DNA of 64,000 bases. It comes from an uncultured Candidatus Saccharibacteria bacterium. Its GTDB lineage: Bacteria > Patescibacteriota > Minisyncoccia > Phycocordibacterales > UBA2100. Every line of letters begins with the position of its first letter. Within the stretch, counting starts at the first letter, position 1. Shown one piece after another: positions 1,502-28,454 of this stretch. The stretch is taken from the NCBI GenBank assembly GCA_964586255.1, contig CAZPGE010000003.1:2537-66536 (forward strand). The letters are read 5' to 3'. The notes beneath the pieces were generated by a model. The model did no database searches. It worked only from the letters and a program-made list of their open reading frames with translations, and was not told where the DNA came from. A program made the position numbers and the translations under genes.

Positions 1502-1502
1502 T

Positions 1503-4874: not shown

Positions 4875-4916
4875 GAGAGCGATGGATTACACTACGACAC
4901 CTGGTGCTATATAATA

Positions 4917-5510: not shown

Positions 5511-5513
5511 CAT

Positions 5514-6811: not shown

Positions 6812-6836
6812 AGTGTATTCCTATACAATACCAGTC

Positions 6837-10260: not shown

Positions 10261-11943
10261 CTAGAATTTCGCTCCTTCGTGAACTAGGAACTCACGCAGG
10301 TCGTGGGCGATGCGATCGCGGTGTTCGTCAAAGCGTATGTCCGAGTACGTGACAAGGGCGGGGAGAGTACCGTTACTTGTAGAGCGCGCCTTAGGTGTGA
10401 TGTACAGCATTTCTCTCGAAGTATCTGAGGCGAGAAGAAGTGTTGGGAATGCAGCGTGTGTGAGAAATAGCGTTTGCGCACTGAGGTCATGAGGTGCTCC
10501 CTCCGCATACGTATCAAGATTGTTTTGTGTAATACGTACGATATTGGCAACAATTAAATCGAGTCCCGCAGACCCACTGCTCCATAGAAGCACAATTTCC
10601 TCAAGCTCACGGAGTTCTCCTGGAGAATTCGCTTGCGTCAGCACTTCGATAAGTGCTTCGCGTGTGTACACATATGCGTCTGACTCGTACCATACGTCAC
10701 CGGTAGAAAGGAGCGCTGAGCGATACGTGCGTGCAATTTCAGGGTGACGCTCCGCGAACTTTGCGCTAGCGCGCACCGCCTTTGCTCTCGTAAGATCCGT
10801 GCCGACATCGGGGCACAGATAGAACATCGTGGGGTTAATACGACTGAAACGCATGTCGTACTTTTTAGCGAGATATTGCAGCATTGGCGCCTTCGTATTT
10901 TCTGTGGGAGAAAAGATCACATCACCCACATACCACAGCGGAGCGATACCTAGGGGCTCCTCATTTCCTACAATGACGACATGGGGGTGGGGTAGTTCGC
11001 GAAGGCACACACTTTGCGTGAGGACAATGGGAGTCGAATTAGTAAATATGGGGGACGCCCTTTTTGTGAAGGTCTCGGCGTACAGCGTTCTCACCGAATC
11101 TATTAGAGTCCGGGACGCAGTGGATACACGCGGCGTCTTTGCGGCCGAAAGTGGAAATGCACGGCCAAGTATGAGCGAATCGGGATAACAATTCTCGATG
11201 CGGCCTTTCAGGCATGCATCGAGTTCCTGCGACTGACTTCCGAGTCTCTCAAACTCGCTCTCTATGCTGCGCGAAGTATCCAGCATGCTTTGGACTGAAA
11301 TGCTGCCACCGAATCCCTGGAATTGAGCCTTCTTTCCTGCCGTTATGAGCTCGTATGTCTTACGGAAATACGTACTGTCTTGGCGGCCAGCGGCGAGCGC
11401 GCGTCTTAGAGACGCATGATACAAGTCTCCATCTGTATCCGTACCGGATGCAATAAATGTACGCCGCGCTTTCTCAAGCTCAGCAAGCGACAATAAAAAG
11501 TGAATCGGATAGAGGCTGCGTATGGCAGATGTTTCCTGTGCGGTCATTTGTACACCCGCCAACTCATCCATGACTTCAGCGAGTTGGTGTGTAGAATCTT
11601 CAAGAAGTTGCGGGTCGCTTCCGGCAGCACTTAAAAGCGGTGCGCGACTCGCAAGCGTACGCGCGTAAGCAAGACGAAGAGCATTTCGGGCCGCAGTCGT
11701 AGATGTTCTCATGCCGTCCTCAGCTTCGACAAGACCGCCATGAATTCTGAACGATTTCCCTCGATACACGACGACCTCCTCTGTGCTCATCGTTTGAAGC
11801 ACAGAAGAGAAAAATGTGTCTGCGGCAGCCTGTTCATGTCGGTATCGGACGGCCGAAGAGATGGCACTCGCGGCTGCGAGGCCGAGAATAGCGTAGGCGA
11901 TATACGTGCGAATCCGGGTACTCATGGCACTGTAAGCATACAT
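10261..11943 (-). CDS. Large N-terminally anchored hypothetical protein (paralogue A)
   Basis: 560 aa. N-terminal TM helix. Shares length, architecture and motifs (ALRLAYA...; HFLLSLAELEKARRTF versus DFLEELANLEVARRQF) with 11977..13650. Confidence 0.6.
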   Translation of the reverse strand: MYAYSAMSTRIRTYIAYAILGLAAASAISSAVRYRHEQAAADTFFSSVLQTMSTEEVVVYRGKSFRIHGGLVEAEDGMRTSTTAARNALRLAYARTLASRAPLLSAAGSDPQLLEDSTHQLAEVMDELAGVQMTAQETSAIRSLYPIHFLLSLAELEKARRTFIASGTDTDGDLYHASLRRALAAGRQDSTYFRKTYELITAGKKAQFQGFGGSISVQSMLDTSRSIESEFERLGSQSQELDACLKGRIENCYPDSLILGRAFPLSAAKTPRVSTASRTLIDSVRTLYAETFTKRASPIFTNSTPIVLTQSVCLRELPHPHVVIVGNEEPLGIAPLWYVGDVIFSPTENTKAPMLQYLAKKYDMRFSRINPTMFYLCPDVGTDLTRAKAVRASAKFAERHPEIARTYRSALLSTGDVWYESDAYVYTREALIEVLTQANSPGELRELEEIVLLWSSGSAGLDLIVANIVRITQNNLDTYAEGAPHDLSAQTLFLTHAAFPTLLLASDTSREMLYITPKARSTSNGTLPALVTYSDIRFDEHRDRIAHDLREFLVHEGAKF

Positions 11944-11976: not shown

Positions 11977-13650
11977 TCAGTTTGTATCGAGATCGAATGA
12001 GCGAAAGAACCGCATGTATGAAATAGCGTCGGTCGTGGACAGAGTCTCATTCGAGAGTTCGGAGAGCAGCGCATATGGTTGCACGTCGGCAGACAAGGTA
12101 TTTGCTGGGAAGATTTGGTCGGTACCGTGTAAGGTGATGTTGAGAGAATTCGGCACGAGAGATAAGAAACCGCTTCGCGCAAAAAATAAATATGTCGCAT
12201 CAAAATCAATCGCTGCTTCGGGGGGGAAATGCAAATGCTTGGTCTCGTATGTATTGATGTCGCGCACCACACCCAGGATTCCGTCGCTCTTTGTGCGCAT
12301 GCGGAGCCACAACGAGCGAACATCATGCGAAATGGACTCCGGGAAGTCTGGGCTTTCCGAAAGTGTCCGCGCGTAGGTGAGATATGTCTCGACGTCGGCT
12401 GTTGTGATTATGTAAGCGGAGGCAAACGTGTTCTCAAGGCGCTCGAGCTCGGTGGCAAGGTTTCCTGAAGCCCTCATACTCAAGGTCTGGCGCAATGCAA
12501 AGTCCTTCACGGCATACGCTGCCATTACAGTCCCGAGGTCTGCTTGGGCCCCCACACATTCATAGTACGAGAGCGAGCTCATGTACACATACGGAATATG
12601 ATGAGCCGCAAAATATCCTATATACGGCAGTCCCGCGTATGGAGCACTTTCTACAAAGAGAATGTCTCCCACAAAAAGAGGTGAGGGTAGGGTTCCGCTG
12701 CCATTGTCTCGCATAGAAAAGAGTGGAGCCGTGCTGGAGTTCAGTGGCGTACATGCACTGTCGGGGAGTAGAAGTAGTTGCGAAGAGGTAAATCGGTAGC
12801 CGGAGCGCTCAAATATGTCGAGTGCACGTCCGGCGAATGTACGTGCCTCCGGATGCACAGGAGCAGCGAAGGTCGTCTGAAATTCTGGTAGGAGAATTTC
12901 AGTAGACGTGCATGCGCGGACGTGGCCTCGGAAGCATGTGAAGCGATTGCGCATGGAATTCGCTACATTGCCAGCATCTTTCTCGAGCTGGTCGAGTGCG
13001 TCAATAAAGTCGTCTCTACTCACGATTGATTGCGGGGTCGCAAAGCTTGGCGCGTCCAGAGGGACGGCCTTCTTAAACGCACGCTCAAATGCCGCGCGGT
13101 CTCTTTGAAAGGCATGAACCGTAGATAAGAGCTGAATTCGATAGCGCCTTGCGCTCTCGTCGTCGCCCACATTGAGGAATTGTCTTCTGGCCACTTCGAG
13201 ATTTGCAAGCTCTTCGAGAAAGTCGATGGGATACAAAAAGTGTTGTACAGAAAAAGTCTGATTGGAGCGTGTTTGTCGCACGGCCAGTTGTGATGCGGTA
13301 GAGCGGAGATTGGTTACGGAAGCTCGAAAGAAATCGATATCGATGTCGGGCAGCGCGAGTAGTGGATTGTTGCGCGCAGCGGATTTTTCGTACGCGAGTC
13401 GGAGTGCGGTGCGCTCTACTGCTCCCGCGACAGGCCCCGCTTCGTTCGCAACGGCGCCGAGCGATACGCGATAGGATACTCCGCGTATAGATACGGTCTC
13501 TTCGATGTGAGCATCTCGAAGAGCATTTGAAAAAAATGCCACCTCCGTGCGTTTTGCAGAGATTACTGAAACGAGGAGAACAAATCCGAAAAGTGCAAAG
13601 AAAAAAAGAGGGGCACGCACGAAGCGTTTCGACGCGAGACAAGCACGCAT
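11977..13650 (-). CDS. Large N-terminally anchored hypothetical protein (paralogue B)
   Basis: 557 aa. N-terminal TM helix (LFFFALFGFVLLVSVI). Tandem paralogue of 10261..11943. Confidence 0.6.
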   Translation of the reverse strand: MRACLASKRFVRAPLFFFALFGFVLLVSVISAKRTEVAFFSNALRDAHIEETVSIRGVSYRVSLGAVANEAGPVAGAVERTALRLAYEKSAARNNPLLALPDIDIDFFRASVTNLRSTASQLAVRQTRSNQTFSVQHFLYPIDFLEELANLEVARRQFLNVGDDESARRYRIQLLSTVHAFQRDRAAFERAFKKAVPLDAPSFATPQSIVSRDDFIDALDQLEKDAGNVANSMRNRFTCFRGHVRACTSTEILLPEFQTTFAAPVHPEARTFAGRALDIFERSGYRFTSSQLLLLPDSACTPLNSSTAPLFSMRDNGSGTLPSPLFVGDILFVESAPYAGLPYIGYFAAHHIPYVYMSSLSYYECVGAQADLGTVMAAYAVKDFALRQTLSMRASGNLATELERLENTFASAYIITTADVETYLTYARTLSESPDFPESISHDVRSLWLRMRTKSDGILGVVRDINTYETKHLHFPPEAAIDFDATYLFFARSGFLSLVPNSLNITLHGTDQIFPANTLSADVQPYALLSELSNETLSTTDAISYMRFFRSFDLDTN

Positions 13651-13654
13651 TTCG

Positions 13655-13867
13655 TCAGTATATGCCCCCGCAGCTTATGAAGAAAATCTCGTCTTCGTAT
13701 GCGTCGGGAACGCATCGTGCCGCCGCTAAAGTGTTCCTGTCCGTATTACCCTCGGAGTGAGTAAACCAGCCATGCGTCGACGAGGTATCCCCATATACGA
13801 GTATCCCGATGATGCCAACGAAGCACCCGAAAAGGAATAATTTCAGTGTCCTCATGTGTACGACCAT
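13655..13867 (-). CDS. Small TM peptide ending ...EDEIFFISCGGIY (candidate precursor or substrate peptide)
   Basis: 70 aa with an N-terminal TM helix (LKLFLFGCFVGIIGILVY). Its C-terminus resembles that of 23586..23816 (...KMLFISCGGFLD). Lies immediately downstream of the PaaK-like gene 13931..15196. Confidence 0.45.
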   Translation of the reverse strand: MVVHMRTLKLFLFGCFVGIIGILVYGDTSSTHGWFTHSEGNTDRNTLAAARCVPDAYEDEIFFISCGGIY

Positions 13868-13930
13868 AGTTCTCTGTCAGTATATCGTCCGCGAGAAGAT
13901 TCGCTAGAAGAGAAGGTGCTCACGGAGTGC

Positions 13931-15196
13931 TCAATGCCGTACAATTCTTCGAATCTTTGTGCCCGGTACGAGTGTAAGGTGTTCACATGTAAGTGGCAGG
14001 TAACGCGCAGAGGCGACCCCCTCCGCGTACGACATGAAAGGCCCGACGCGTATGAGCGACGAAATATCGGCGGCAAACACATCAAGTTTTACATCGGCAC
14101 GCAATTCGATATGGAGGGCGAACTTTAACTGTGGGCCAGACGGAGTTTCAACCTCGGAATAGTGGAGCTCAAACACATCTGAAACCTGCGAGGGGAATAG
14201 TCTGAGCACGCGCGCTATTTCGTCTGCACGCAACAAGCCACCGGGGATTTTAATGAAATCCATATCAGTGCGGCCAAGTACCGTAAATGACCACATCCCA
14301 TGTTCGTGACAGGGCGCCTCCATGATGCGTATCGTGTCACCGATGCGGAAACGAATAAGTGGAAAGGATGCCGGCTCTCCGGGGTATGTCGTAACTAAGA
14401 GATCACCTTCCGCGCCCACGCTCGGCTCGATGATGTTGCCGCTCTCGGCGTCGAGCAGTTCCAAGTAGTGTGTCTCTTTCGGGTGGTAATGGGCGATTGG
14501 TTCAAGAAGTGTAAGTGGTCGACATGGCATGCCCATATGCGCATCCTCGATTTCGCTTGAATTGTACGATTGTACGATAGTGGCATTGGGGAATGTATCG
14601 TGCATGTACTGTATTTGTGCACGGCTGCACACCTCCCCGGTCACTTCAATAAATCGAATTTCCGTATTGTTACCGAGCGCCTTCATTTCTTCTCCGATAT
14701 CGCGCACGTGGTATACAAATGCCGAAAATGCGTCTGCACCCGCCGCTTGCGCGAGTCTCGCCGACGCGCGCGGCTCTCTCGGGTCGAGGCATAGTACGTG
14801 CGGGGAACCGCCGTGCTCCTTTTGAAACGTTTCGTGCCAATGGGGCATCAAGGGTACGGTGAATGCCAGGAATGGTCTCTTGAAGTCATGGAAACGGAGT
14901 CGGTAGTCCATGCCTCGCACGTGCGTGCGAGGGGAAAAGAGTGGAATTTTGCCGCTTGTGCCGGACGATGCGCGCACGTGGTCAAGATTGGAAAGTGGAA
15001 TGAAGGATCGTTCCGCGAGTGCTTTGCGGGCAAGTGCGTCCTTTGTGAGAATCGGAAGCGCGCGCCAGCCGTCCATATCTTGGAGGTCGAGCGCAGGGGC
15101 ATCATGCGATAGACCATACAACTCGCGATAGAACGTGTTGTTGCCTGACCGTGTCGCGCGAGCAGCCAGGGCGTACAGGTCTTTTTGGGAAAGCAT
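13931..15196 (-). CDS. Adenylate-forming enzyme of the PaaK / coenzyme-F390-synthetase-like (ANL) family
   Basis: P-loop SSGTSGKIPLF, A7-like LIRFRIGDT, hinge-region GRTDMDFIKIPGG. 421 aa. Confidence 0.7.
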   Translation of the reverse strand: MLSQKDLYALAARATRSGNNTFYRELYGLSHDAPALDLQDMDGWRALPILTKDALARKALAERSFIPLSNLDHVRASSGTSGKIPLFSPRTHVRGMDYRLRFHDFKRPFLAFTVPLMPHWHETFQKEHGGSPHVLCLDPREPRASARLAQAAGADAFSAFVYHVRDIGEEMKALGNNTEIRFIEVTGEVCSRAQIQYMHDTFPNATIVQSYNSSEIEDAHMGMPCRPLTLLEPIAHYHPKETHYLELLDAESGNIIEPSVGAEGDLLVTTYPGEPASFPLIRFRIGDTIRIMEAPCHEHGMWSFTVLGRTDMDFIKIPGGLLRADEIARVLRLFPSQVSDVFELHYSEVETPSGPQLKFALHIELRADVKLDVFAADISSLIRVGPFMSYAEGVASARYLPLTCEHLTLVPGTKIRRIVRH

Positions 15197-15249
15197 ACTT
15201 GAAAACTATCGCACGCTCTCCCTGCTACCACAATTGCGGATGACCCTCT

Positions 15250-16302
15250 GTGTTCTATAATCACGTTATGCAAATGAACTGGATACGGGCAATCGTAGCC
15301 GTCGTGGTGATTGGGCTAGCCGCGTACGCCATATTCTTCCACAAAGCGACAGGAAGTGATGCGTCAGGTGCGTCGCGCACGGTGACGTGGCTTCTCTCAC
15401 ATCAGCCTACTGACGTCTTTGCCCGCGCAGCCGATGTGTTCGACGAGACTCTCCAAAGAGAGAGCGGAGGGAGTCTTTCTCTCGTACTCATGAAGCCCGA
15501 AGATATTGGAGTTGAAAAAGGCGACGTACCGCATGCAAAAGTGCTTGAGCAACTGAGTTTGGGCACTGCCGATATTGCCTCGGTCTATACCATACCGCTG
15601 GGGAATGAGTACCAGGATTTTCAGATGCTCAACCTGCCGTTCCTCTTCGGCTCATATGAAGAGGCGAATGCCTCGCTCGACGGAGCTGCATTATCGATTC
15701 TTGATACGCGCATGGACAACGTGAGGGGGCTCGCGTTCACTATGAGCGGAGGGCTACGCATCATTGCGTCGAGGAATACGGATATCCGAAAGATGAGCGA
15801 CCTGAAAGGTAAGCGCATTGCGACATCAGGCGGCGCTGTCGCGGAAGCGACCCTTGTGGCGCTTGGCGCCATTCCCGTGCCTCTTGATCTCGAGAATGAT
15901 GGTTCACGCGATTTTTCTTCCATCGATGGCGTAGAGACTACATATGCTCGCCTCTCGACGGCGCTTGGCTCAAACACTGCATTTACTTCACATATAAACG
16001 AGACAAATCACAGTGTGTTTCTCACGGCGATTATCGCGAGCGATACATTCTTCGATTCACTGACGCCCGTCGAGCAAGCGGCGCTCATCTCTGCGGCTCG
16101 TGCCGCGGCGAAAGTCGAACGGCAGGACTCTATCGCACTCAACGCCACGGTAAAAGAGGCGCTTCGTGCGAAAGGGAGCACTGTGAACGAAATATCTCCC
16201 GTGTCTCATCAGGAATTCGTGAACGCAACGAAGGCCGTATACCGGGAGTTTATGTCCCGCTTTTCACCGGATGTCTATGATGCGGTAGTGGGGGAGCGCT
16301 GA
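15250..16302 (+). CDS. Membrane-anchored TRAP-type (DctP-family-like) solute-binding protein, orphan (no DctQ/DctM nearby)
   Basis: N-terminal TM helix. Segments NLPFLFGSYEEANASLDG, DLKGKRIATSGG and ALGAIPVPLDLEN match the DctP fold consensus as I recall it. Confidence 0.55.
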   Translation: MFYNHVMQMNWIRAIVAVVVIGLAAYAIFFHKATGSDASGASRTVTWLLSHQPTDVFARAADVFDETLQRESGGSLSLVLMKPEDIGVEKGDVPHAKVLEQLSLGTADIASVYTIPLGNEYQDFQMLNLPFLFGSYEEANASLDGAALSILDTRMDNVRGLAFTMSGGLRIIASRNTDIRKMSDLKGKRIATSGGAVAEATLVALGAIPVPLDLENDGSRDFSSIDGVETTYARLSTALGSNTAFTSHINETNHSVFLTAIIASDTFFDSLTPVEQAALISAARAAAKVERQDSIALNATVKEALRAKGSTVNEISPVSHQEFVNATKAVYREFMSRFSPDVYDAVVGER

Positions 16303-17099
16303 GCGTTCTGCGCCCGGACAATTGTTTTCCCACAGACGCAGAGCCCCACTTCATCTGTGGTCAGACTGGTTTCGTAACGTATGAGGGGCAGTGGATCATC
16401 AATGTGGCCCGTGACGAGTGCATTGGTCCCGTGTTCCCAGGTGTACCCTGCGCCGACATGAAAGGAGAATTCTTTTCCTGCGATGTGTGCACACTGTTCG
16501 AGAACGGGCACCCCGGGTATTAGATGAATCTCTTGTACGAGTGTACGAGCCGAGTTCGTCAGTGCGGGTACGAGTGGCACCATGGAATCGCTTTTCTGTA
16601 CGATGTGCCATGTATCAGGAAATGAGAGACCGTTCACCATAAGAAATGTTGCGAACTCATTTGCGTCTGCAGCGTCTGTGACCACGACCGCAACTGATGA
16701 GCGAAGTATCGCCATCGCCCCGAGGGGCATGTTCCCCTTGTCGTTAACAAAAATAAAAAGACCTTGCTTGTTACACGCTGAAAAAAGCGGGATTTCGACT
16801 TGCCAAAAAAGCGGCAGGCGGACCATCAGCCCACGGCCCTCGTGATCGGCCAGCGTCCTCTCTATCGAGTCCCATCGCCATGATTCTGCGCGAGGGAATA
16901 TGGTGAGCGATGAGTCGCTGGGTGAAAACGAGCTCGGAACGTAGCGTCCTCGTAGGGATTGTGTATGCGTCAAAACTTTCTTTAATGAAATCGCAAGCGT
17001 CTCTGGCGTCATCTGTCGCTCCTCAATCTCTACGCCAGCACGTGCCCATTTCGCGCGCTCCGCAGCCGCTGCCTGTGAAATTCCTACGTCGTCCTGCAT
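16275..17099 (-). CDS. P-loop-less PaaK-like paralogue (degenerate adenylate-forming-enzyme homologue)
   Basis: Ends with a PaaK A7-like region (PLPLIRYETSLTTDEVGLCVCGK) but has no SxGTTG P-loop and no C-terminal subdomain. Same architecture as 24968..25750. Confidence 0.5.
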   Translation of the reverse strand: MQDDVGISQAAAAERAKWARAGVEIEERQMTPETLAISLKKVLTHTQSLRGRYVPSSFSPSDSSLTIFPRAESWRWDSIERTLADHEGRGLMVRLPLFWQVEIPLFSACNKQGLFIFVNDKGNMPLGAMAILRSSVAVVVTDAADANEFATFLMVNGLSFPDTWHIVQKSDSMVPLVPALTNSARTLVQEIHLIPGVPVLEQCAHIAGKEFSFHVGAGYTWEHGTNALVTGHIDDPLPLIRYETSLTTDEVGLCVCGKTIVRAQNAQRSPTTAS

Positions 17100-17167: not shown

Positions 17168-17635
17168 TTACATCGCTCCACCAAACAAGATCACGTCCGC
17201 ATTCGCGCGCTCCGCGCGCCACTTACGAGAAAGATCAACAGCAATAAGCATGCCAGGAGAAAGATCGGCGAGTGAGCCTGAGGCGGTCTCGGAGAAGCCC
17301 ACATACACTCCGTCGGAGGATATGAGACTTTGTCTGATAAAGAGGGTAACCTCGCTCACATCGATGGTGAGAGTCACATTTTCTTGTCCAGCTAAAATCT
17401 GATTTCTAAGAATTATGGTGAGTTGGTTTTTCGGAACATCGACACCGACGACTTCGGCGTGCCAAAGTGTCGAGCGTTGTGATAGAAGACTGCGCTCGGT
17501 CTCGTATTGAGCTACGAGCTTAGCGTATGTGCTTTGAAGGGTGTCATATGCATAACGATAGCTGAATGTTGCAAAAGCAAGTCCAGAGAGGCTCGCTGCA
17601 ATCACGACCACACCGGCAATATTCAGGATTTTCAT
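17168..17635 (-). CDS. Small N-terminally anchored hypothetical protein
   Basis: 155 aa. TM helix (IAGVVVIAASLSGLAFATF). Weak similarity to the adjacent 17632..18111 gene (VVGVDVPKNQLTIIL versus IVESVDLTQREITILV). Confidence 0.4.
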   Translation of the reverse strand: MKILNIAGVVVIAASLSGLAFATFSYRYAYDTLQSTYAKLVAQYETERSLLSQRSTLWHAEVVGVDVPKNQLTIILRNQILAGQENVTLTIDVSEVTLFIRQSLISSDGVYVGFSETASGSLADLSPGMLIAVDLSRKWRAERANADVILFGGAM

Positions 17636-18111
17636 AGATTCTCGGGGAGCGGTTTATTGACGACGAGTGAGAGCACTCTGAACGGGCCAGGATCTCGTTG
17701 GAGTCGAATCAAAGCGAGCAGTCCTCCTTGTGTTTTGCTGATATCGTATCGGGGAGTCTGGGCACGATCCAGGGTACTGGTGCTTTCCGCGATGCTGACA
17801 TTTGCAAAATTGTTTACGGCGTCGAAAGAAATCCTAAATGGCGCCCTCGCCTCCGGAAATCCGGGATACGCGACAAGAATGGTAATCTCTCTTTGAGTGA
17901 GGTCAACGCTCTCCACGATGCCGCGAATGCTAATGATTGACGTGGCGCTCTTTGGAGGTAATCCTCCCACCGTCCCCATCGATTCTATGAAGGGCGACAT
18001 CATAAAGTATGTGCTCAGTAGTCCGATGGCGCATCCACAAGTGATGCTCAGAATCGTGGTGCTTTGCATACACTCAAGTATATCGCGGTTGCGGATAAGG
18101 TAGGAAATCAT
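17632..18111 (-). CDS. Small N-terminally anchored hypothetical protein (possible paralogue of the previous gene)
   Basis: 159 aa. TM helix. Overlaps its neighbour by 4 nt. Confidence 0.4.
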   Translation of the reverse strand: MISYLIRNRDILECMQSTTILSITCGCAIGLLSTYFMMSPFIESMGTVGGLPPKSATSIISIRGIVESVDLTQREITILVAYPGFPEARAPFRISFDAVNNFANVSIAESTSTLDRAQTPRYDISKTQGGLLALIRLQRDPGPFRVLSLVVNKPLPENL

Positions 18112-19991: not shown

Positions 19992-21344
19992 ATGCTCATG
20001 CAATCTCGAAATATCGGCTTCGGAGTGGGCGTGACCGTACTCACGTGCGTACTCGCAGCGTATGCGGTAGTTTCGAGTCTTTCTCCGAAAGTCTTTACGA
20101 TTACGCTCACCGAGTCAGGATTTGTGCCCTCAAGATTGCTCATAGATAAGGGAGATACCGTCGTCTTTATATCTGAGGTCGAGGACGCATTCTGGCCGGC
20201 ATCGGACTCGCATCCCACCCACGGTCGCTATCCTGAATTTGACCCAGGTCGCGCGCTCGTTCCGGGAGAGTCATGGGAATTCACGTTTGAGAAAGCCGGT
20301 GTGTGGACATTCCATGATCACCTGAGGACGGGTCTGAGAGGCAAGATATTGGTCATGGGCGCAAAAGGTGAAAGCAGCAGGAATTGTCTAAAGGTACAAA
20401 CCGGGACCATACAGCCTGAGTGCTGGGAAGCCGAAGTTGTATCTGTCGTGCGCACAAGAGGTACGGAAGCGGCATTCGACTCGATACGAACATGGTATGA
20501 AGAGAGCAGTGACTTCCGGAGAAATTGTCATGATGTTATGCATATTGTGGGCGTTGCGGCATATGCCGAATATGCCGGGAAAGGACTCGTTACGATACGA
20601 GACGAGACGTCGTATTGCGGGCATGGCTTTTATCACGGATTTGTTGAAAAGATGCTTTTGGAACGCGGGGCAGGCCAGTACGCGGAGGCCGATGCGTATT
20701 GCACGGATCTCAAGGTCATGAAGCCCGAGGCGGCCGGATCGTGTTATCACGGTATCGGTCACGCGGTATTCGATTCAATCGATGGTTCTTTGTGGGGTAA
20801 TGACGTCGGCATGGTCGACTTCGCGCTTGGCGTATGCCAAGCGGCACTGTCAGGCGAGTGGGAGCGCGTGCGTTGTGGTTCCGGCATCTTTAATGCGCTG
20901 GCGAATGCGTATAGTGCAAGAACCTATGACCTCACGTATCTCGATAATAAGCCGCCCTCTCTTTGCGACAATGTGCCGAAAGCGTATCAAGACTTTTGCA
21001 ATATGGAACTTGGCAATGGATATATCCGAGATAAACATTGGGGGCAGGCACAGGAAATCGATTTCATTCGACGTATCGAAAATCAGGAAGTTCGCGCTGC
21101 GATCATCGTGGGATATATGGACACTGAGGTCAAACGTTCTATAGATGCTGTTGACGTAGGGGCATTCGCGAAGTTGTGCCGCTCCTTCTCAATAGAGCAA
21201 GATATTCATGCGTGCGTTGTAGGAGTTCATTCGGGTTTGCGGGGGATCGGCGAGCCCGAAAACGAGGATGGGCTCGTGGAATCGTTTTGCAGGCTTTTGG
21301 ATGGTCCATACCGCATGACGTGTACCGAGAGTACTCGCCCATAG
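19992..21344 (+). CDS. Anchored fusion protein: cupredoxin-like domain plus Cys/His-rich repeat domain (family member 4)
   Basis: TM helix, then a cupredoxin-fold signature (GDTVVFISEVEDAFWPASDSHPTHGRYPEFDP...WEFTFEKAGVWTFHDHLRTGLRGKILV), then YCGHGFYHGF and SCYHGIGHAVFD motifs. Confidence 0.7.
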   Translation: MLMQSRNIGFGVGVTVLTCVLAAYAVVSSLSPKVFTITLTESGFVPSRLLIDKGDTVVFISEVEDAFWPASDSHPTHGRYPEFDPGRALVPGESWEFTFEKAGVWTFHDHLRTGLRGKILVMGAKGESSRNCLKVQTGTIQPECWEAEVVSVVRTRGTEAAFDSIRTWYEESSDFRRNCHDVMHIVGVAAYAEYAGKGLVTIRDETSYCGHGFYHGFVEKMLLERGAGQYAEADAYCTDLKVMKPEAAGSCYHGIGHAVFDSIDGSLWGNDVGMVDFALGVCQAALSGEWERVRCGSGIFNALANAYSARTYDLTYLDNKPPSLCDNVPKAYQDFCNMELGNGYIRDKHWGQAQEIDFIRRIENQEVRAAIIVGYMDTEVKRSIDAVDVGAFAKLCRSFSIEQDIHACVVGVHSGLRGIGEPENEDGLVESFCRLLDGPYRMTCTESTRP

Positions 21345-21364: not shown

Positions 21365-21751
21365 ATGCGCGCGGTATTCAGTATCTTGATAGTGCTTGCA
21401 GTCGTCGCGCTCGTAGGTGCCCTCGTGTATACGAGCACCCCATCCAAAGTAAAGATAGTCGACTTTCAGGGACAAGAAAGAGTCGATATCGTGCTGAAAG
21501 AAGACGGTTTCGAACCGCGCGATATCCGCGTGACTCGGGGCACCGTGGTGACCTTTACTACAACGCGTCCAAACAAATTCTGGCCGGCTTCCAACGCGCA
21601 TCCATCGCATGATGTGTACCCGCAGTTTGACCCGCAGAAGGTGCTGAGCCCAGAGGAATCATGGTCGTTCACATTTGACGTGGTGGGTGTGTGGGGTTAC
21701 CACGATCACGTGCGTTCGTATTTTACCGGGGTCATATATGTGGATGAATAA
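21365..21751 (+). CDS. Small anchored cupredoxin-like protein (stand-alone paralogue of the N-terminal domain of 19992..21344)
   Basis: Starts at Met 64 of ORF 21176..21751 (MRAVFSILIVLAVVALVGALVY). Contains RGTVVTFTTTRPNKFWPASNAHPSHDVYPQFDP...WSFTFDVVGVWGYHDHVRSYFTGVIYV. Confidence 0.65.
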   Translation: MRAVFSILIVLAVVALVGALVYTSTPSKVKIVDFQGQERVDIVLKEDGFEPRDIRVTRGTVVTFTTTRPNKFWPASNAHPSHDVYPQFDPQKVLSPEESWSFTFDVVGVWGYHDHVRSYFTGVIYVDE

Positions 21752-22946
21752 AAAGATATTGGTACGCGTGGGGGCAGGTGCGGTGCTCTGTATTGCGCTG
21801 GCCGCTCTGCTTTTTTCATACAGAGACAATTCGAAATCGACGCTCGCGCCATGCCGCAAGGAAACAGTCGATACACAGCAAATAGAATGCATTTTCCGCT
21901 CGATTGAGCGTGAGATTCTTGACGACGGGATGTCAGCGGGTATGGTGCTTTTCTCGCGTGCATACGCTGACTTCCCTTCATTCGTAGCTCAAGGATGTCA
22001 CAAGCAAGCTCACAGAGTCGGAGATATCGTGTATGCGCGTCTTTACACGTCCGAAGGGGGAATGGACGCACTCGATTTTCCGCAAGAGACAACCGCGTGC
22101 GGATACGGATTTTTCCACGGGTTTCTCGAACACTTGATACAAGACAGACCCGACCCCAAGTTTGTCGACTCGATATGTACAAACTTGAGCACGCGTCTCA
22201 GTGGGACGATGGGTTCCATAAAGAGCATATGTTTTCATGGGAGCGGACATGGATTTGCGCTCGCTCATGCAGAGACATTGCCCCGCTCTGCGTGGGGAAA
22301 TGTGCGGGAATTCACGGTGGATGCTGCCGCGATGTGTGACAAGCTTACTGAGGCCGATGAACGTTCGGTTGAGGAATGTAAGGAGGGCGTGTTCAATGTG
22401 TTGGTAGAGTGGATGTCCCTGAAGCAGTACGGCTTTTCCTACGATCAGGCGCGGCCATTTGTTCCATGCGACGCGGGGCCGAGAAGCTTACAGAGTGCGT
22501 GTTACTACGAGATGGCGCAGAAATTGGATGGACTCGCGGAGCGCGACCCTGTCAAGCTTGCACGTATTGTCGCCGATATTCCCGATGAACGATTGAGACT
22601 CATGTCATTCAAAGTCGGTATTGCGGGCATCGTCCAAAATACGATACAAGACAAAGGTGCTTCGGAGAGGATACTTTCTGCATGTGCCACATTGGATAGG
22701 CGATTTCTCAATCTGTGCCTGGAGAATTTCGTACATGGATTATTTGAACATGGTGCACCGCAGGAAGAATATATCCGTGCACTCGGCATGTGCAGGCTCG
22801 ACGCTGTTGTTGAGAATGATCTTGCATCGAAATGCTATGTTGCTGTCATGGAGCGTTTGCCCCGCTTCTACTCTCAAGACCAGCAGAGAAGTATTTGCAC
22901 TGAGTTTCCGCCAGAATTCCGCTCGGATTGCACGCGAAGCTTATAA
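21744..22946 (+). CDS. N-terminally anchored Cys/His-rich repeat protein (family member 5)
   Basis: Start ATGAATAA overlaps the upstream stop (alternative ATG at 21738). TM helix (GAGAVLCIALAALLF). Motifs include ACGYGFFHGFLEHL and CFHGSGHGFALAH. Confidence 0.7.
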   Translation: MNKKILVRVGAGAVLCIALAALLFSYRDNSKSTLAPCRKETVDTQQIECIFRSIEREILDDGMSAGMVLFSRAYADFPSFVAQGCHKQAHRVGDIVYARLYTSEGGMDALDFPQETTACGYGFFHGFLEHLIQDRPDPKFVDSICTNLSTRLSGTMGSIKSICFHGSGHGFALAHAETLPRSAWGNVREFTVDAAAMCDKLTEADERSVEECKEGVFNVLVEWMSLKQYGFSYDQARPFVPCDAGPRSLQSACYYEMAQKLDGLAERDPVKLARIVADIPDERLRLMSFKVGIAGIVQNTIQDKGASERILSACATLDRRFLNLCLENFVHGLFEHGAPQEEYIRALGMCRLDAVVENDLASKCYVAVMERLPRFYSQDQQRSICTEFPPEFRSDCTRSL

Positions 22947-23539: not shown

Positions 23540-23585
23540 GCTCTCGTATTGTACATAGCCTTAGTATCGATGTTATTATATTTAC

Positions 23586-23816
23586 ATGAAAAGTCTCCGA
23601 GAAAGAACCTCCGGTATCTTTTTTGGCCTGGCGGCTCTCGGCTTAACCATCGGAGCCACAATGGCCTTGTGGTCTGCTCGTTTCGGGACCTCCGTGTTTG
23701 GGCACAAGTCCTCACTCTCAGTTTCCAACACATGTCTTCCGGGACAGGCCTCGGTGCTTAAAAAAGAAAACCCAAACAAGATGCTCTTCATCTCATGCGG
23801 TGGATTTTTGGATTAA
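23586..23816 (+). CDS. Small TM peptide ending ...NKMLFISCGGFLD (candidate precursor or substrate peptide)
   Basis: 76 aa with an N-terminal TM helix (IFFGLAALGLTIGATMALW). Its C-terminus is shared with 13655..13867. Immediately upstream of the PaaK-like gene. Confidence 0.45.
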   Translation: MKSLRERTSGIFFGLAALGLTIGATMALWSARFGTSVFGHKSSLSVSNTCLPGQASVLKKENPNKMLFISCGGFLD

Positions 23817-23862
23817 TGACGACGTGTCATACCGTCGGCAGTGGAATAAGCGGTAATCGCAC

Positions 23863-24966
23863 ATGATGGAAAGAAGTGACATTGCCGCACTCTACAACGA
23901 GATTCTCGATGAGTTTGTTGCACACCCACCCGAAAAGCCGCAGGAGTACTGGATACGCATGACCTCGGGTACGACGACCGGTAGGCCTTTCCTCACGATG
24001 TGGCACAAGAAAAGCGCCGCTGATTGGCCTCATGCAGAGAGCATGCGTCGTTTTATTGTTGCATACGGATTGCTTGCGACTCGCATGAGCAACGTGCTTT
24101 CTTTTCGCATCAATACTGAAAACGAAGGTGCGCTCGTCCTTCCGTTCGATGCCGGTGCGCTCGAACCGTGGGTCGAGCGCCTCCTCTATGATTTTGCACC
24201 CGACAGTTTTTACGCAATCCCGTCTTTTGCTGTCCGCATCTCCGAGCATATGAGCGAAGAATCCCGGAGCAACGTACACACGCTCGGTTTTTCGGGTGAA
24301 CCAATGTCAAAGACGCTTAGAGATTTGTTTATGTCACGATTCCCAAAGGCGAGGCAGGTTATTACATTCGCCACGTCCGAGACCGGAGTCATCACAGGAT
24401 TCCCGTGCGATTATCTTTCTCCGAATCGATATCATCCGCGCGAGGGAGTCGTGATTGAAGTCGAGGAGCCCGACGAGCGGGGTATCGGATACCTACTTAT
24501 CAGTAAAGACCTTCTCTTCGGGAAGCGCATGGAGCGCTACAAGATTGGTGATATGGCCCGCATCGTGCCGGAAGCATGTCCGTGCGGGCAAGCGCTCACA
24601 TTTGAAGTTTTTGGCCGCGCCGGATACGATTTTATAAAAGTAGCTGGAGCAATTTTGCAGCGAGAGGAATTTGATCGTGTCGCGAGCGAATGCGCGGCAC
24701 TCTTCGACGACTACTATGCGGAGGCGGAAGCCGTCGTCGCCGACGGAAAGTTGAAGGGTAAAATAGTTCTCACCGTGTATCGGTCGAATGGCGCGCCGGC
24801 TGTTGAAGAAATTGCACGGGAATTTTCGGCGCGAATATATCTCAGTGTCTCGCAAACGCTGGAGCAGTTTGTTGCACAAGGATTGTTTCTCCCGCTCACC
24901 GTTTTAGTGAGCACAACACCCTTGGTGCGGGACGGGAAGGCGAAGAAGCTTTCGTTGCGTACATAA
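23863..24966 (+). CDS. Adenylate-forming enzyme of the PaaK / coenzyme-F390-synthetase-like (ANL) family
   Basis: P-loop TSGTTTGRPF, A7-like RYKIGDMARIVPEACPCGQ, hinge GRAGYDFIKVAGAIL. Confidence 0.7.
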   Translation: MMERSDIAALYNEILDEFVAHPPEKPQEYWIRMTSGTTTGRPFLTMWHKKSAADWPHAESMRRFIVAYGLLATRMSNVLSFRINTENEGALVLPFDAGALEPWVERLLYDFAPDSFYAIPSFAVRISEHMSEESRSNVHTLGFSGEPMSKTLRDLFMSRFPKARQVITFATSETGVITGFPCDYLSPNRYHPREGVVIEVEEPDERGIGYLLISKDLLFGKRMERYKIGDMARIVPEACPCGQALTFEVFGRAGYDFIKVAGAILQREEFDRVASECAALFDDYYAEAEAVVADGKLKGKIVLTVYRSNGAPAVEEIAREFSARIYLSVSQTLEQFVAQGLFLPLTVLVSTTPLVRDGKAKKLSLRT

Positions 24967-24967
24967 C

Positions 24968-25750
24968 ATGCATATGAGTACACCGATTGAGAATAGCACC
25001 GAGCTTGAGCAACTAATCTCGTTTGTACGCGAAAGTTCGCTCAGTGATTTCTATAGAAATAAATGGGGGACCGCGCAGACATACGGCGGTCTTCCACATA
25101 CTTCGCGCGCTGACTTCATAGCGGCCCCACTTTCCAAGCGTCGCTATAAGAAAGAGAAAGGTATGGTGAAAATCGTAGGAACAGGCGAACAAGCTTTTTT
25201 GTCCGAATGGAGCTTTACGGACATTGGACGAGAACCGTATGCACCGCATAGCACACGCCCGTTTGTCTACATGACAGATTCATATGATGCGGTAGAGAAA
25301 TCTTTGTGGTGCTATGAGAATGGCATGACGCCGCTCGTCGGAGAGAAAGACTCGGACATGGCCATCTTTGCAGCTGAGCGATATCAAATCGACTCGCTAC
25401 TCGTCGACGAACAGTCTCTTGCGAAATTTGCACCGTTTTTTTCGACACTCGAGGCACCGCTTTCCTCTATTACGATTATTGCGTCTAGCTTTTCTCCAAG
25501 CGAGCTTATGTCGCTTGAACGGTACGCCTCATCTATACGCCTGGTCCTCGCGCTGCCCGAAACAGGTGCATTTGCCGAAGCACCACTCTCACGAAACCCG
25601 GAATTCGCCCCGCTCCCGCACTGTGTAATCGAGCATGAATCGGGGATTATTCTCACGAAATTCGCACGGTATCCGACGCCAATCATTCGCTACCGAACCG
25701 ACATACACACACTACCGATTCCCGGTAGCCAGAGCTTTACGTTGCTCTAG
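24968..25750 (+). CDS. P-loop-less PaaK-like paralogue (degenerate adenylate-forming-enzyme homologue)
   Basis: Starts 1 nt after the upstream stop. About 260 aa, ending in an A7-like YPTPIIRYRTDIH. No P-loop. Confidence 0.5.
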   Translation: MHMSTPIENSTELEQLISFVRESSLSDFYRNKWGTAQTYGGLPHTSRADFIAAPLSKRRYKKEKGMVKIVGTGEQAFLSEWSFTDIGREPYAPHSTRPFVYMTDSYDAVEKSLWCYENGMTPLVGEKDSDMAIFAAERYQIDSLLVDEQSLAKFAPFFSTLEAPLSSITIIASSFSPSELMSLERYASSIRLVLALPETGAFAEAPLSRNPEFAPLPHCVIEHESGIILTKFARYPTPIIRYRTDIHTLPIPGSQSFTLL

Positions 25751-25828: not shown

Positions 25829-26890
25829 ATGTCGATACTGCATTTCCTTAGCTATCACAACGCGGTGCCGATTGCGGTATCCGTCGTGCTCCTCGGCGCC
25901 GGAGCAAGCTTTGCAGCCACAAATCCAGAGACCATATATTCAGAATCACAAACGGTTTTGTCCATCGACAATACGTATCTCGTCAACAAAGACCTCGGTG
26001 CGTACAGTCCTCGGGCGCAAATAGTTACGGTCACGGAGGACGCGGATACGTACTACATAGAATACACTCTCTTCACAATCGATATCGAAGATGCTGTATG
26101 GAAAGACATCTCCCGGCAACAGATTATGAAAGTTTCTAAAGCGGCGCTCGGCCCCTATCGAGACCTCGGTGTGTATGTCACCGGTCAGCTCAGAGAAAAT
26201 ATAGAGCAAGAGATACGACGACTCACCGAGACACAGGAGATAGAAAAGAGAAATGTCTCACAGAAAATAGTTGCGACCGAATACGGAGGACTTGTCGGCA
26301 AAATGCTCGACACCACGACCGAGACACTGCCGGGCTATACACCTGTCGTGGTCCGTCCACCAGAGCCACAAGTCGCGGTAGTCGGCGAAGCGGTGGGGGG
26401 TGCGCCGGCGTCCGGAACGCCGTCGCAAGAGATTCCGTCTACGGCAGCTCCACAGAGCGATCCGGGTGCGCCCACGATTCAGGTCCTCGGCAACAATCCT
26501 GCGCGGATTCCTCTCGGAAGTACGTATGCTGACCTCGGTGCCGCGATTACCGGCCCCACGCCACAAGACCAAACCCTTGGTATCCATGTATTTGTCAATG
26601 GCAATGAGATGCAGACGCCTTCCATCGACACAGCTATCGCTGGGGAGACAATGATCCGCTACGAGGCCACGAATGCAGCGGGCCTGAAAGGAGTAGCGGA
26701 CAGAGTTGTCGTTGTCTATGACCCAAACGCGTCGAAGGAGCCGGCTGCGTCAGCCTCTGTTGCGGAAACAGTGTCTGCGACCTCTACGGCAGGACAGACT
26801 GGAGCAGTCGCGCCTTCATCAGGAAGCGAACCTGCATTGGACGCAGTATCGGCGCAGTCGGCATCTTCGACAGATGCGACGGCGCAATAA
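25829..26890 (+). CDS. Secreted hypothetical protein with an Ig-like (DUF5011-type) domain and a low-complexity Ala/Ser/Thr-rich C-terminus
   Basis: Signal peptide (AVSVVLLGAGASFAAT). The segment PTIQVLGNNPARIPLGSTYADLGAAITGP resembles the DUF5011 Ig-like motif as I recall it. Confidence 0.5.
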   Translation: MSILHFLSYHNAVPIAVSVVLLGAGASFAATNPETIYSESQTVLSIDNTYLVNKDLGAYSPRAQIVTVTEDADTYYIEYTLFTIDIEDAVWKDISRQQIMKVSKAALGPYRDLGVYVTGQLRENIEQEIRRLTETQEIEKRNVSQKIVATEYGGLVGKMLDTTTETLPGYTPVVVRPPEPQVAVVGEAVGGAPASGTPSQEIPSTAAPQSDPGAPTIQVLGNNPARIPLGSTYADLGAAITGPTPQDQTLGIHVFVNGNEMQTPSIDTAIAGETMIRYEATNAAGLKGVADRVVVVYDPNASKEPAASASVAETVSATSTAGQTGAVAPSSGSEPALDAVSAQSASSTDATAQ

Positions 26891-26953
26891 TGGGCGTTGG
26901 CCACATCCGAAAGGGATTTTCCTGGAAAGGCGGGTGATATACTGCTTCGTACT

Positions 26954-27958
26954 ATGGCAAAAATCGCAATCAACGGCTTCGGCCGCATCGGGAGAGGGTT
27001 TATGCGTGCAGCGCACGGGCAGGCAGATATTGAAGTTGTTGCAGTCAACGACCTCACTTCCCCAGCTAATCTCGCGTACCTCTTAACATACGATTCGGTC
27101 TATGGGAGAGCGCCGTTTAGCGTTTCGTCTACTGAAAAGACACTCACCGTCGACGGGAAAACGATTCCCGTACTCTCTGAGAGGGATCCGGGAGTGCTCC
27201 CGTGGCGCGATATGGGTATTGACATCGTTCTTGAGTCGACAGGATTTTTTACCGATGCAGAAAAAGCGCGTGCGCATATCACGGCAGGCGCTAAAAAAGT
27301 CGTCATAACCGCACCCGCAAAAGGGGCGGGAGCGGAAACGATTCTGATTGGCGCCAACGAGAGTAAGTTTGGCACGTGCGACATCACATCGAACGCATCC
27401 TGCACGACGAATGCCGCGAACCCCCTCATCGGTGTGCTGGACGAAGCTATCGGTATCGAGAGAGCGCTTCTCAATACGACGCACGCATACACGGCGACAC
27501 AGGCAATCGTCGATGCGCCGGCATCCGACGACTTCCGCCGTGGCCGAGCGGGTGCGCTCAATCTCTCGCCAAGCTCAACCGGAGCCGCAAAAGCGACATC
27601 TCTCGCATATCCGCAGCTTGCGGGCAAATTCGACGGTATTGCAGTACGCGTCCCCGTACCGTCAGGCTCCATCGTTGATATCACGTTCGTCCCCAAGCGC
27701 CCCACGACGGTAGAGGAAGTGAACAGCGCGCTCCGTGCGGCCGCAACAAGTGACCGGTGGAAGAGGGTGTTTGCCGTCACCGAAGAGCCGCTCGTTTCTT
27801 CAGATATTCTAGGACTTCCATATGGTGCGATTGCCGATTTGCAAATGACTCGTGTCGTTGATGGGACACTTGTAAAAGTACTCGCATGGTATGACAATGA
27901 AATGGGGTACGTACACACGCTCCTCGAACACGTAAAAGAGGTCGCAAAGAGAATGTAG
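26954..27958 (+). CDS. gap: Glyceraldehyde-3-phosphate dehydrogenase (type I)
   Basis: MAKIAINGFGRIGR Rossmann N-terminus. SNASCTTNA catalytic-Cys region. WYDNEMGY near the C-terminus. Confidence 0.9.
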   Translation: MAKIAINGFGRIGRGFMRAAHGQADIEVVAVNDLTSPANLAYLLTYDSVYGRAPFSVSSTEKTLTVDGKTIPVLSERDPGVLPWRDMGIDIVLESTGFFTDAEKARAHITAGAKKVVITAPAKGAGAETILIGANESKFGTCDITSNASCTTNAANPLIGVLDEAIGIERALLNTTHAYTATQAIVDAPASDDFRRGRAGALNLSPSSTGAAKATSLAYPQLAGKFDGIAVRVPVPSGSIVDITFVPKRPTTVEEVNSALRAAATSDRWKRVFAVTEEPLVSSDILGLPYGAIADLQMTRVVDGTLVKVLAWYDNEMGYVHTLLEHVKEVAKRM

Positions 27959-27959
27959 T

Positions 27960-28454
27960 ATGCGCGTGTATTTTGCATCTGACCACGCAGGATTCGAACT
28001 CAAAAATAAACTCGTAGAGTATGTCAGAGATTTCCTTGGAGTCGACGTGGAAGATTGCGGCGCGCTCGAGCTCGACGCCACCGACGATTACCCCCACATC
28101 ATCGCGTCGGCAGCGAAACGCCTTTCGACGGACGTATCGCAGGGAATAGAGAGCAGAGCGATTTTGCTCGGTGGCTCTGGCCAGGGAGAAGCGATGGTCG
28201 CCAATCGATTCAAAGGCGTCCGTGCTGCGCTCTACTATGGTGAGGCGAAGGCTCCACAGACAGATGCCACGGGAAAGCGATTGGACATAATCGCCTCCGT
28301 GCGAGAACACAATGATGCCAATGCGCTGTCGCTAGGAGCTCGGTTTGTCTCCCTAGAAGAGGCGCAGGACGCAGTCAAAAAGTGGCTCGAGACACCGTTT
28401 TCTGGAGATGAGCGCCATGCTCGGAGGGTTGCTGATATCGACACATTGTCCTAG
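27960..28454 (+). CDS. rpiB: Ribose-5-phosphate isomerase B
   Basis: MRVYFASDHAGFELK...ILLGGSGQGEAMVANRF is typical of the RpiB/LacAB family. Starts 1 nt after the gap stop. Confidence 0.85.
   Translation: MRVYFASDHAGFELKNKLVEYVRDFLGVDVEDCGALELDATDDYPHIIASAAKRLSTDVSQGIESRAILLGGSGQGEAMVANRFKGVRAALYYGEAKAPQTDATGKRLDIIASVREHNDANALSLGARFVSLEEAQDAVKKWLETPFSGDERHARRVADIDTLS

Follow-up and report, generated by a model that had tools for sequence, protein, structure and literature searches.

A conserved Patescibacteria cassette that joins membrane peptides with a Cys-Gly-Gly tail to a PaaK-type enzyme and its predicted inactive paralogue

Introduction

The genomes of the candidate phyla radiation (CPR), or Patescibacteria, are small and largely unannotated, and little is known about episymbiont signalling and attachment. 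A stretch of 64,000 nucleotides from an uncultured Candidatus Saccharibacteria bacterium (assembly GCA_964586255.1, contig CAZPGE010000003.1, positions 2,537 to 66,536 of the forward strand), hereafter the window, raises a question of this kind. Twice within the window, a short membrane peptide with a Cys-Gly-Gly tail is encoded near an adenylate-forming enzyme of the PaaK type (protein A) and a smaller homologue of that enzyme devoid of the ATP-binding P-loop (protein B). An earlier model-made annotation, which we call the sequence-only reading, proposed that these three components constitute a dedicated system, perhaps with the peptide as substrate. Do the genes belong together, and what could the enzymes do to the peptide? 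Here we address both questions by comparing the window with related loci and with known systems.

Results

All six open reading frames (ORFs) described by the sequence-only reading are intact in the window and carry the motifs it quoted. Module 1, located on the plus strand, consists of pep1 (23586..23816), a type-1 peptide of 76 amino acids (aa) with the C-terminus NPNKMLFISCGGFLD-stop, followed by A1 (23863..24966; 367 aa) and B1 (24968..25750; 260 aa). Module 2, located on the minus strand, comprises pep2 (13655..13867), a type-2 peptide of 70 aa with a pep1-like architecture and the C-terminus EDEIFFISCGGIY-stop, together with A2 (13931..15196; 421 aa) and B2 (16275..17099; 274 aa). The claimed recurrence of the three components at 13655-17099 therefore stands, although they are not contiguous: a gene for a DctP-family solute-binding protein (15250..16302, plus strand) lies between B2 and A2, so that the minus strand reads B2-[DctP]-A2-pep2. 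Transcribed towards each other, the DctP gene and B2 share 28 nt at their 3' ends. In a six-frame translation of the 64-kb window the string FISCGG occurs twice, in pep1 and in pep2, in both cases two to three residues before the stop codon, and the two peptides align with an E-value of 8e-4.

Related loci were retrieved with A or B as the only bait, never with the peptide, which yielded a sample of 24 distinct CPR loci with usable flanks (denoted by handles such as L006). Their lineages are Parcubacteria-type (Kaiserbacteria, Nomurabacteria, Paceibacterota, Minisyncoccota-labelled bins and two Saccharibacteria-labelled bins), and the identity of their A proteins to those of the window goes down to 28–39%. 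A transmembrane (TM) peptide ending in [ST]-C-G-G plus two or three residues was found in 23 of the 24 loci, in one to four copies per locus. Across all loci, 44 ORF ends carried the C-terminal motif in the real DNA, compared with none in the reversed DNA. The peptides are typically within about 50 nt of A or of a third gene, c1, described below; 39 of 41 lie at most 300 nt from an A, B or c1 gene, and their median distance to A is 51 nt. Absence of peptides beside PaaK-like genes in related genomes had been named in advance as the outcome that would speak against a dedicated conserved system; these independent loci, and the co-occurrence statistics proposed along with that claim, bear the claim out. 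The single peptide-less locus, L018 (8900-9990; also L017 and L019), contains an intact A gene and a B gene that is truncated and split into two ORFs, and two tRNA-Arg genes and a 228-aa ORF fill the place of the peptide and of the N-terminus of B. Local decay thus accounts for the missing peptide.

The association extends to the subtypes of the components. Type-1 tails (CGGF[LI][EDNQ]) occur with A1 enzymes, which have a short N-terminus, and with B1 proteins bearing an N-terminal microdomain, and type-2 tails (CGG-x-[YF]) occur with A2 and B2; each class of peptide has an A/B class of its own as genetic partner. Gene order is variable across the loci (pep-A-B, B-A-pep-c1, pep-B-A, or A-B and a peptide on the other strand, at A identities of 28–39%), and whole cassettes have been duplicated in L012, L014 and L030, with pep-c1-B-A as the repeated unit in L012 and L030. 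Genomes across the Parcubacteria-type lineages harbour two to four copies of the cassette, with roughly equal numbers of peptides and A/B genes. Modules 1 and 2 flank a DctP gene in a single cluster in L006, L002 and L015, and are about 6.5 kb apart in the window. In 23 of the 24 loci the arrangement corresponds to that expected of a cluster for a peptide made by the ribosome and then modified post-translationally (RiPP), that is, a small precursor gene beside a modifying enzyme, both conserved together. The module had been described as one of three components, which holds for the peptide, A and B and overlooks c1 and the binding proteins: the conserved unit is a cassette of four to five components, namely peptide, A, B, c1 and, usually, a DctP or TctC binding protein.

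The peptides of the family share a short basic N-terminus, one hydrophobic helix of about 20 residues and a tail of 41–56 aa (about 48 aa in pep1, including Cys50). The tail ends in φ-[FY]-[FILV]-[ST]-C-G-G, φ being a hydrophobic residue, followed by two residues in type 2 (IY, FF, LF) or three in type 1 (F[LIF][EDNQ]). Orthologues of pep1, ending in NPNK[ML]LFI[ST]CGGF[LI][ED], were found in 14 or more loci with A identities of 35–87%, and orthologues of pep2, ending in [DE]x[IV][FY]F[ILV][ST]CGG[ILMFT][YF], likewise in 14 or more. Among 36 non-redundant peptides, C-G-G is always two or three residues from the end (one has C-S-G), which makes the tail Cys the fifth or sixth residue from the end in 36 of 36, and the rest of the tail is variable. 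This fixed spacing to the stop codon argues that the free C-terminus itself matters. A second Cys, 14–21 residues before the tail Cys, is kept in nearly all peptides. Of the motif C-x-P...FISCGG initially put forward, the Cys and the CGG end are conserved across the family, whereas the Pro is not.

Some familiar fates of such residues were considered and rejected. A lipobox, which would place L-[AS]-[GA]-C directly behind the h-region of a signal, or a signal-peptidase site at the upstream Cys is not compatible with its position 20–30 residues past the helix or with the variable residues at -1 to -3, of which -1 is often Q, R or E. CaaX prenylation requires a Cys at the fourth position from the end, not the fifth or sixth; the lone hint of prenylation is a sub-threshold PPTA repeat match in the TPR region of a 625-aa neighbour (see below). 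A resemblance to the mycofactocin precursor MftA, which ends in ...CGVY, was dropped because no radical-SAM gene lies nearby, and a ubiquitin-like GG terminus was dropped because two or three residues always follow the GG and no E1 or JAMM gene is present.

As for the expression of pep1, a promoter-like element (window 23550-23579, plus strand; TGTACA-18 nt-TATTAT, its -10 hexamer preceded by TG) stops 6 nt short of the pep1 ATG (23586). It is a consensus match only, and such sites are no commoner in the region than expected by chance. No Shine-Dalgarno sequence is visible upstream of pep1, whose mRNA may therefore be leaderless. The RNA of the pep1-A1 and A2-pep2 intergenic regions folds no better than shuffled sequences (z of +1.0 and -0.1, respectively), which indicates that neither contains an attenuator or terminator.

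Enzymes of the PaaK type convert a carboxylate and ATP to an acyl-adenylate, from which a thiol then forms a thioester. The sub-threshold matches of A1 and A2 to AMP-binding and PaaK models were their only hits in Pfam and NCBIfam. A1 represents the short-N-terminus subtype, with the P-loop TSGTTTGRPF at residue 34, YKIGDMARI and GRAGYDFIKVAG, and has no N-terminal microdomain. A2 represents the long-N-terminus subtype, in which the P-loop SSGTSGK, at residue 77, follows a microdomain (FYRELYG..W.ALPILTKDAL). The two share 26% identity (E 3e-14). A profile built from 12 A sequences matched the solved PaaK-like structure 4r1l with an E-value of 1.6e-18, aligning query residues 28-332 with chain residues 90-411 and thus covering both domains; 9s3l (E 7e-13) and 2y27 (E 7e-11) were also matched. 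Invariant in the 12 sequences are S35, G36 and T37 of the P-loop (A3), which is present in 47 of 47 A ORFs, G145-E146 (A5), G229-D230 (A7), G251-R252..D256..K259..G262 (hinge/A8) and K359, whose position suggests that it is the A10 catalytic Lys. Since the core motifs are invariant and the match to 4r1l spans both domains, A is classified from its sequence as a complete, very divergent PaaK-type adenylate-forming enzyme in the PaaK-like clade of the ANL superfamily. It is not an orthologue of PaaK, given that it scores 15–37 bits against the PaaK equivalog models TIGR02155 and NF041878, far below their cut-offs of 646 and 700; no paa catabolic genes were found in the neighbourhood.

Protein B looks like A reduced to its N-terminal domain. 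B1 carries IIRYRTDIH and an N-terminal microdomain (SDFYRNKW..LP.TSRADF); B2, which has PLIRYETS...C.CG at its C-terminus, is devoid of both the microdomain and the entire P-loop hairpin. The two are 21% identical (E 1e-3). Sequence searches with B1 returned no Pfam, NCBIfam or PDB match, and B2 gave a weak PaaK match to the A7 region; a joint B profile aligned with the A profile in hhalign (81.5%, E 1e-5). An AlphaFold2 model of B1, with a mean pLDDT of 95.4, adopts the fold of the PaaK N-terminal domain, to which B2 is linked by sequence. The best Foldseek matches of the B1 model are the PaaK-like BT_0428 and PaaK1 (E about 1e-10, TM-scores 0.70–0.73), with 4r1m at E 8.5e-11 and a query TM-score of 0.70 and 2y27 at a query TM-score of 0.73. 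The assignment to the PaaK-like clade, for which profile and structure searches had been suggested, is thus supported for A and for B1, and the LuxE family went unmatched.

The B proteins all stop just past the A7-like IRY.T region. The loop at the position of the P-loop is unconserved in 53 B1-type sequences and deleted in B2-type ones, so that B lacks a conserved P-loop as well as the C-terminal lid domain, both of which adenylation requires. A word-indexed search with B1 found 58 homologues of 193–308 aa, all annotated as hypothetical. A B profile search of 1.84 billion representative sequences found 266 clusters at 50% identity, of which 146 reached E<=1e-30, and the 150 family members listed from these clusters are all stand-alone proteins of 117–302 aa. 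Sequence and model together therefore identify B as a conserved, inactive ANL paralogue consisting of the PaaK N-domain only. The sequence-only reading had named a pseudogene origin of the P-loop-less ORFs as its possible undoing; an intact stand-alone family with a confidently predicted fold refutes it.

The same data bear on the suspicion that the system is an artefact, with chance ORFs taken for peptides and decaying ligase fragments taken for B. Gene callers do at times miss or mis-call the peptide, as in L002, where an opposite-strand ORF was called in its stead. Against this, the 44-to-0 count of real and reversed motif matches, the 36 non-redundant peptides, the 266 clusters of the B family and the B1 model leave such an artefact a negligible probability.

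Several observations link A and B as one unit. The start codon of B1 follows the A1 stop after 1 nt, and in most loci the genes for A and B adjoin directly or overlap. When the 47 A ORFs were classified, all A1-type enzymes had their P-loop at residues 30–47 and no PaaK N-terminal microdomain, and all A2-type enzymes had the microdomain (FYR..YG...W..LP..TKD.L) and a P-loop at about residue 75. B shows the reverse, as the microdomain is present in B1-type and absent from B2-type proteins, and the N-terminus of B1 aligns with the microdomain of A2 (hhalign 97.9%, E 5e-13). Each A/B pair thus contains exactly one microdomain. Furthermore, a Candidatus Paceibacterota contig (JBAYUL010000008.1; L011:10373-12361, minus strand) encodes a 662-aa B-A fusion in a single ORF, in which a B-like domain (residues ~117-261 matched), with a microdomain, WSMWVYEH, LALPECG and PVVRYKAP, is joined to a complete A-like enzyme (314-656) with YSSGTTGAPK ... 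YGSTETG ... CSCG. The fold of B, the complementary microdomain, the fusion and the tight start/stop coupling argue for one A-B complex, and we infer from the sequences that A and B form a pseudo-dimer. The proposal that the P-loop-less paralogue serves as a non-catalytic partner has gained strength from the microdomain pattern and the fusion.

The fourth component, c1, is represented in the window by c1a (11977..13650, minus strand; 557 aa), in which four Cys are invariant and an N-terminal TM helix precedes a mostly helical body, and by its paralogue c1b (10261..11943, minus strand; 560 aa, 21% identity), so that two c1 genes accompany two peptides. Members of the family are membrane-anchored proteins of 500–590 aa encoded in 19 of the 24 loci, at a median of 38 nt from a peptide gene and often starting 4–10 nt past the peptide stop; in the window, the pep2 stop lies 4 nt ahead of the start codon of c1a, which is translationally coupled to pep2. 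Three database homologues of c1 were found. The AlphaFold2 model of c1, built from four sequences, reached a pLDDT of 50.8 and yielded no Foldseek match under E 0.5, and c1 profile searches of PDB and Pfam returned nothing.

This coupling, together with the four invariant Cys of c1 and the two of the peptide, would also suit neighbours without a common mechanism, with peptide and c1 forming a disulfide-bonded extracellular surface complex and A-B being an unrelated cytoplasmic ligase of the same operon. The wider synteny with the genes for GAPDH, RpiB and transketolase, equally kept in these genomes, points the same way. Mere co-location is nevertheless very unlikely, as the association outlasts both heavy rearrangement of gene order at 28–39% A identity and the duplication of whole cassettes (L012, L014, L030).

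The fifth component is a membrane-anchored binding protein of the DctP (TRAP-type) or TctC type, present in the cassette in 15 of the 24 loci, with a third binding-protein family in the cassette of L029. The DctP protein of the window has an N-terminal membrane anchor, matches Pfam DctP with an E-value of 1e-34 and retains the carboxylate-binding Arg (GGLRII; alignment to 4p47); TctC matches range from E 1e-25 to 1e-45. The DctP gene occupies different places inside module 2 in the window, in L001 and in L006, which indicates that it has moved repeatedly yet stayed inside the cassette.

These proteins invite an explanation by organic-acid scavenging, in which the anchored DctP or TctC captures a carboxylic acid outside the cell, for example an aromatic or short-chain one, and A, with B as its regulatory or structural partner, converts the acid once taken up to acyl-AMP or acyl-CoA, the peptide and c1 being accessory subunits in the membrane or outside the cell and no substrates. 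The pairing of a binding protein with a CoA ligase is typical of aromatic-acid operons, the nearest solved relatives of A are aryl-acid CoA ligases, the carboxylate-binding Arg is retained, and two unrelated families of carboxylate-binding proteins recur in the cassettes, with another binding-protein family in L029. On the other hand, the Pfam records of the loci contain no DctQ, DctM, TctA or TctB, nor any other transporter, and the binding protein is missing from nine of the 24 cassettes, whereas the peptide is present in 23 loci. Scavenging would also leave the fixed C-terminal motif, the matching of peptide and enzyme classes and the roughly 1:1 copy numbers without explanation. We consider it unlikely.

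Further genes adjoin the cassette. Two small single-TM proteins (17168-17635 and 17632-18111, both on the minus strand) and a polytopic membrane protein of 625 aa whose C-terminus carries TPR repeats (18110-19987, plus strand) are possible accessory genes with matches below the Pfam cut-off. They stay beside the cassette in about eight loci (the window, L001, L002, L006, L015, L016, L021 and L030), mainly in closer relatives, and their membership in the cassette is uncertain. Three paralogous membrane-anchored proteins of 387–450 aa (9085-10248, 19992-21344 and 21675-22946, all on the plus strand) include one with a weak cupredoxin-like N-terminus and one rich in Cys and His with repeated C..HG.GHG-like motifs; two to four copies of this family stand beside the cassette in L020, L026, L028 and L029, and a CopC gene lies nearby in L026. 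Seven consecutive plus-strand ORFs at 98-9088, of 181–1123 aa (the longest at 1503-4874), gave no Pfam match at E<=1e-3. The block after the cassette (window 25829-28454; also L004, L027, L028 and L029) encodes an Ig-like surface protein, GAPDH, RpiB, ribulose-phosphate epimerase and a split transketolase, and its synteny is lineage-wide and not to be taken for functional linkage.

Discussion

The cassette has a composition that is undescribed. Pfam, NCBIfam and PADLOC searches were empty for the peptide, B and c1, PADLOC produced no defence-system match for any cassette component, and four of the five components (the peptide, B, c1 and the A subfamily) are without family assignment. Within the library searched, our literature searches found no paper on this cassette, on PaaK-like enzymes with a precursor peptide or on an ANL-type RiPP, in agreement with the statement of the sequence-only reading that it knew of no such pathway.

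What could this cassette do? Tentatively, and at less than even probability, we lean towards the view that it is a Patescibacteria-specific cassette for making a small, membrane-anchored, C-terminally modified peptide with a thioester on its tail; sequence conservation and analogy with known systems point in this direction. In this scheme, B would supply or receive the single N-terminal microdomain and act as a docking or scaffold subunit for A. The cytoplasmic A-B complex would bind the invariant tail φ-φ-[ST]-C-G-G-φ-φ(-D/E/N/Q)-COOH and spend ATP to place a thioester on the invariant tail Cys. The modified peptide would then be inserted or exported by means of its N-terminal helix and, outside the cell, would meet the co-encoded extracytoplasmic c1, joined in many genomes by a DctP or TctC protein that binds carboxylates. 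As first suggested, the peptide would thus be a putative substrate of A, adenylated or ligated at its Cys-Gly-Gly end.

The simplest chemistry would be adenylation of the terminal α-carboxylate, which the Cys located four or five residues upstream would then capture, giving a thiolactone of five or six residues. The ring would resemble that of an autoinducing peptide formed independently of AgrB, and its formation would parallel the use of ATP by the ThiF-like GrcB. With one invariant thiol, one invariant carboxylate (the C-terminus), a spacing of four to five residues and a Gly-Gly bridge, a thiolactone is the most economical reading of the tail. The specific proposal that A closes the tail onto the Cys of C-G-G in this manner, with B as candidate for docking the peptide, is by our estimate from sequence and analogy rather doubtful.

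A thioester on the same Cys could also arise if the peptide were an acyl carrier. A-B would then adenylate a small acid and load it on the CGG Cys in place of CoA, and the S-acyl peptide would deliver or display the acyl group at the membrane. This would reconcile the binding proteins with the peptide, the Cys is the sole invariant nucleophile in the tail and sits beside the sterically minimal Gly-Gly, and LuxE offers the precedent of a PaaK-like enzyme that acylates a Cys in a C-terminal region. An acyl carrier would, however, account poorly for the exact two or three residues after CGG and for the class-specific last residues; a thioester exposed on the cell's exterior would not last long, the loci showed no downstream enzyme to take over the acyl group, and A1 and A2 have no LuxE match in Pfam. 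We judge this possibility quite unlikely.

Several points weigh against modification of the tail by A-B. Judged from the hydrophobic helix and its flanking charges, the tail is predicted to be extracellular, plainly so in type 2, and because A and B have no signal sequence, the modification would have to precede insertion. The presence of a second Cys upstream, nearly invariant, speaks for an ordinary extracellular disulfide and not for a thioester, and the conserved part of the peptide is its C-terminus, which is atypical for a RiPP core. Sequence and profile comparison revealed no recognisable catalytic motif in c1. The recurring carboxylate-binding proteins of two unrelated families fit a small-acid substrate as well or better. 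Finally, the Pfam records of the neighbours list no protease, no exporter of the ABC or another type, no radical-SAM enzyme or kinase in any locus, and no receptor.

If A-B does modify the tail, the ANL superfamily would join the enzymes that process ribosomal peptides, the A-B pair would be a clear case of a pseudo-enzyme partner arisen by domain loss and microdomain complementation, and organisms not yet culturable alone would carry a thioester-bearing surface or signal peptide. Should the product be a thiolactone, A would be the first RiPP macrocyclase of the ANL family and would define a new RiPP class confined to the CPR. A surface thioester could be transferred to the Cys upstream or to an amine, either of c1 or of a host cell, and would provide the episymbionts with a signalling molecule or a warhead for covalent attachment.

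Comparison with known systems

The closest relatives of A are PaaK and PaaK-like ligases (2Y27, 4R1L/4R1M, the NatL2-type 6SIW and AjiA1 6WUQ), which share with it the signature of the two-domain ANL fold and all core motifs; the N-terminal microdomain in A2 and B1 is also of the PaaK type. Unlike these enzymes, A always comes with a dead paralogue of its N-domain, with c1 and with a peptide that bears a CGG tail.

For the chemistry, the nearest parallels are GrcB and EnfB. GrcB, a ThiF-like thiolactone synthase, forms a peptide thiolactone driven by ATP and adenylation, and EnfB uses adenylation to activate a peptide's carboxylate at the C-terminus; in both systems, an internal nucleophile captures the adenylated carboxylate to give a thiolactone or an imide (PMC12250964). 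The chemical logic proposed for A-B is the same, its activity being predicted only. GrcB and EnfB differ in being E1-like, not ANL enzymes, and in having a RiPP recognition element domain where the cassette offers the separate pseudo-enzyme B as the candidate docking unit; moreover, GrcB links the side chain of a Glu with a C-terminal Cys, in an orientation opposite to that of the ring proposed here. No ThiF match was found in any scanned protein, and the sole ATP-using enzyme is of the ANL type.

A dead homologue of an adenylating enzyme also serves as docking partner in YcaO cyclodehydratases, where the inactive E1-like 'C protein' or domain (McbB, the N-terminal half of LynD) docks the peptide. 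This is the role that we infer for B, with a different fold and a different partner enzyme.

Staphylococcal autoinducing peptides are built from a Cys plus four residues, the last two of which are hydrophobic (CSSLF, CDFIM). The CGG peptides resemble them in this respect (CGGIY, CGGFF, CGGLF) and resemble the precursor AgrD in being small and having an N-terminal membrane-associating helix. They differ from AgrD in lacking a C-terminal recognition tail, the would-be ring being their very end, and in having a second conserved Cys upstream, and the proposed energy source is ATP instead of peptide-bond cleavage. AgrB and AgrC/AgrA were absent from the Pfam matches of the window neighbours and from the called genes in L001-L006 and L026-L030.

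LuxE is a PaaK-like ANL enzyme that hands an activated acyl group not to CoA but to a protein Cys, located near the C-terminus of LuxE itself. It is similar in size to A1; its acceptor is its own Cys, whereas that in the cassette would belong to a separate peptide. Neither A1 nor A2 matched LuxE (PF04443) at E<=1, and LuxC and LuxD are absent. The binding proteins, in turn, clearly belong to the families of the tripartite ATP-independent periplasmic (TRAP; DctP) and tripartite tricarboxylate (TTT; TctC) transporters and keep the carboxylate Arg, yet they are orphans without DctQM or TctAB, membrane-anchored and embedded in a peptide/ligase cassette. The cassette thus departs from the defining features of the Agr, ThiF-type RiPP, LuxE and TRAP systems, and by analogy it would operate as an adenylation-dependent peptide modification system built from different parts.

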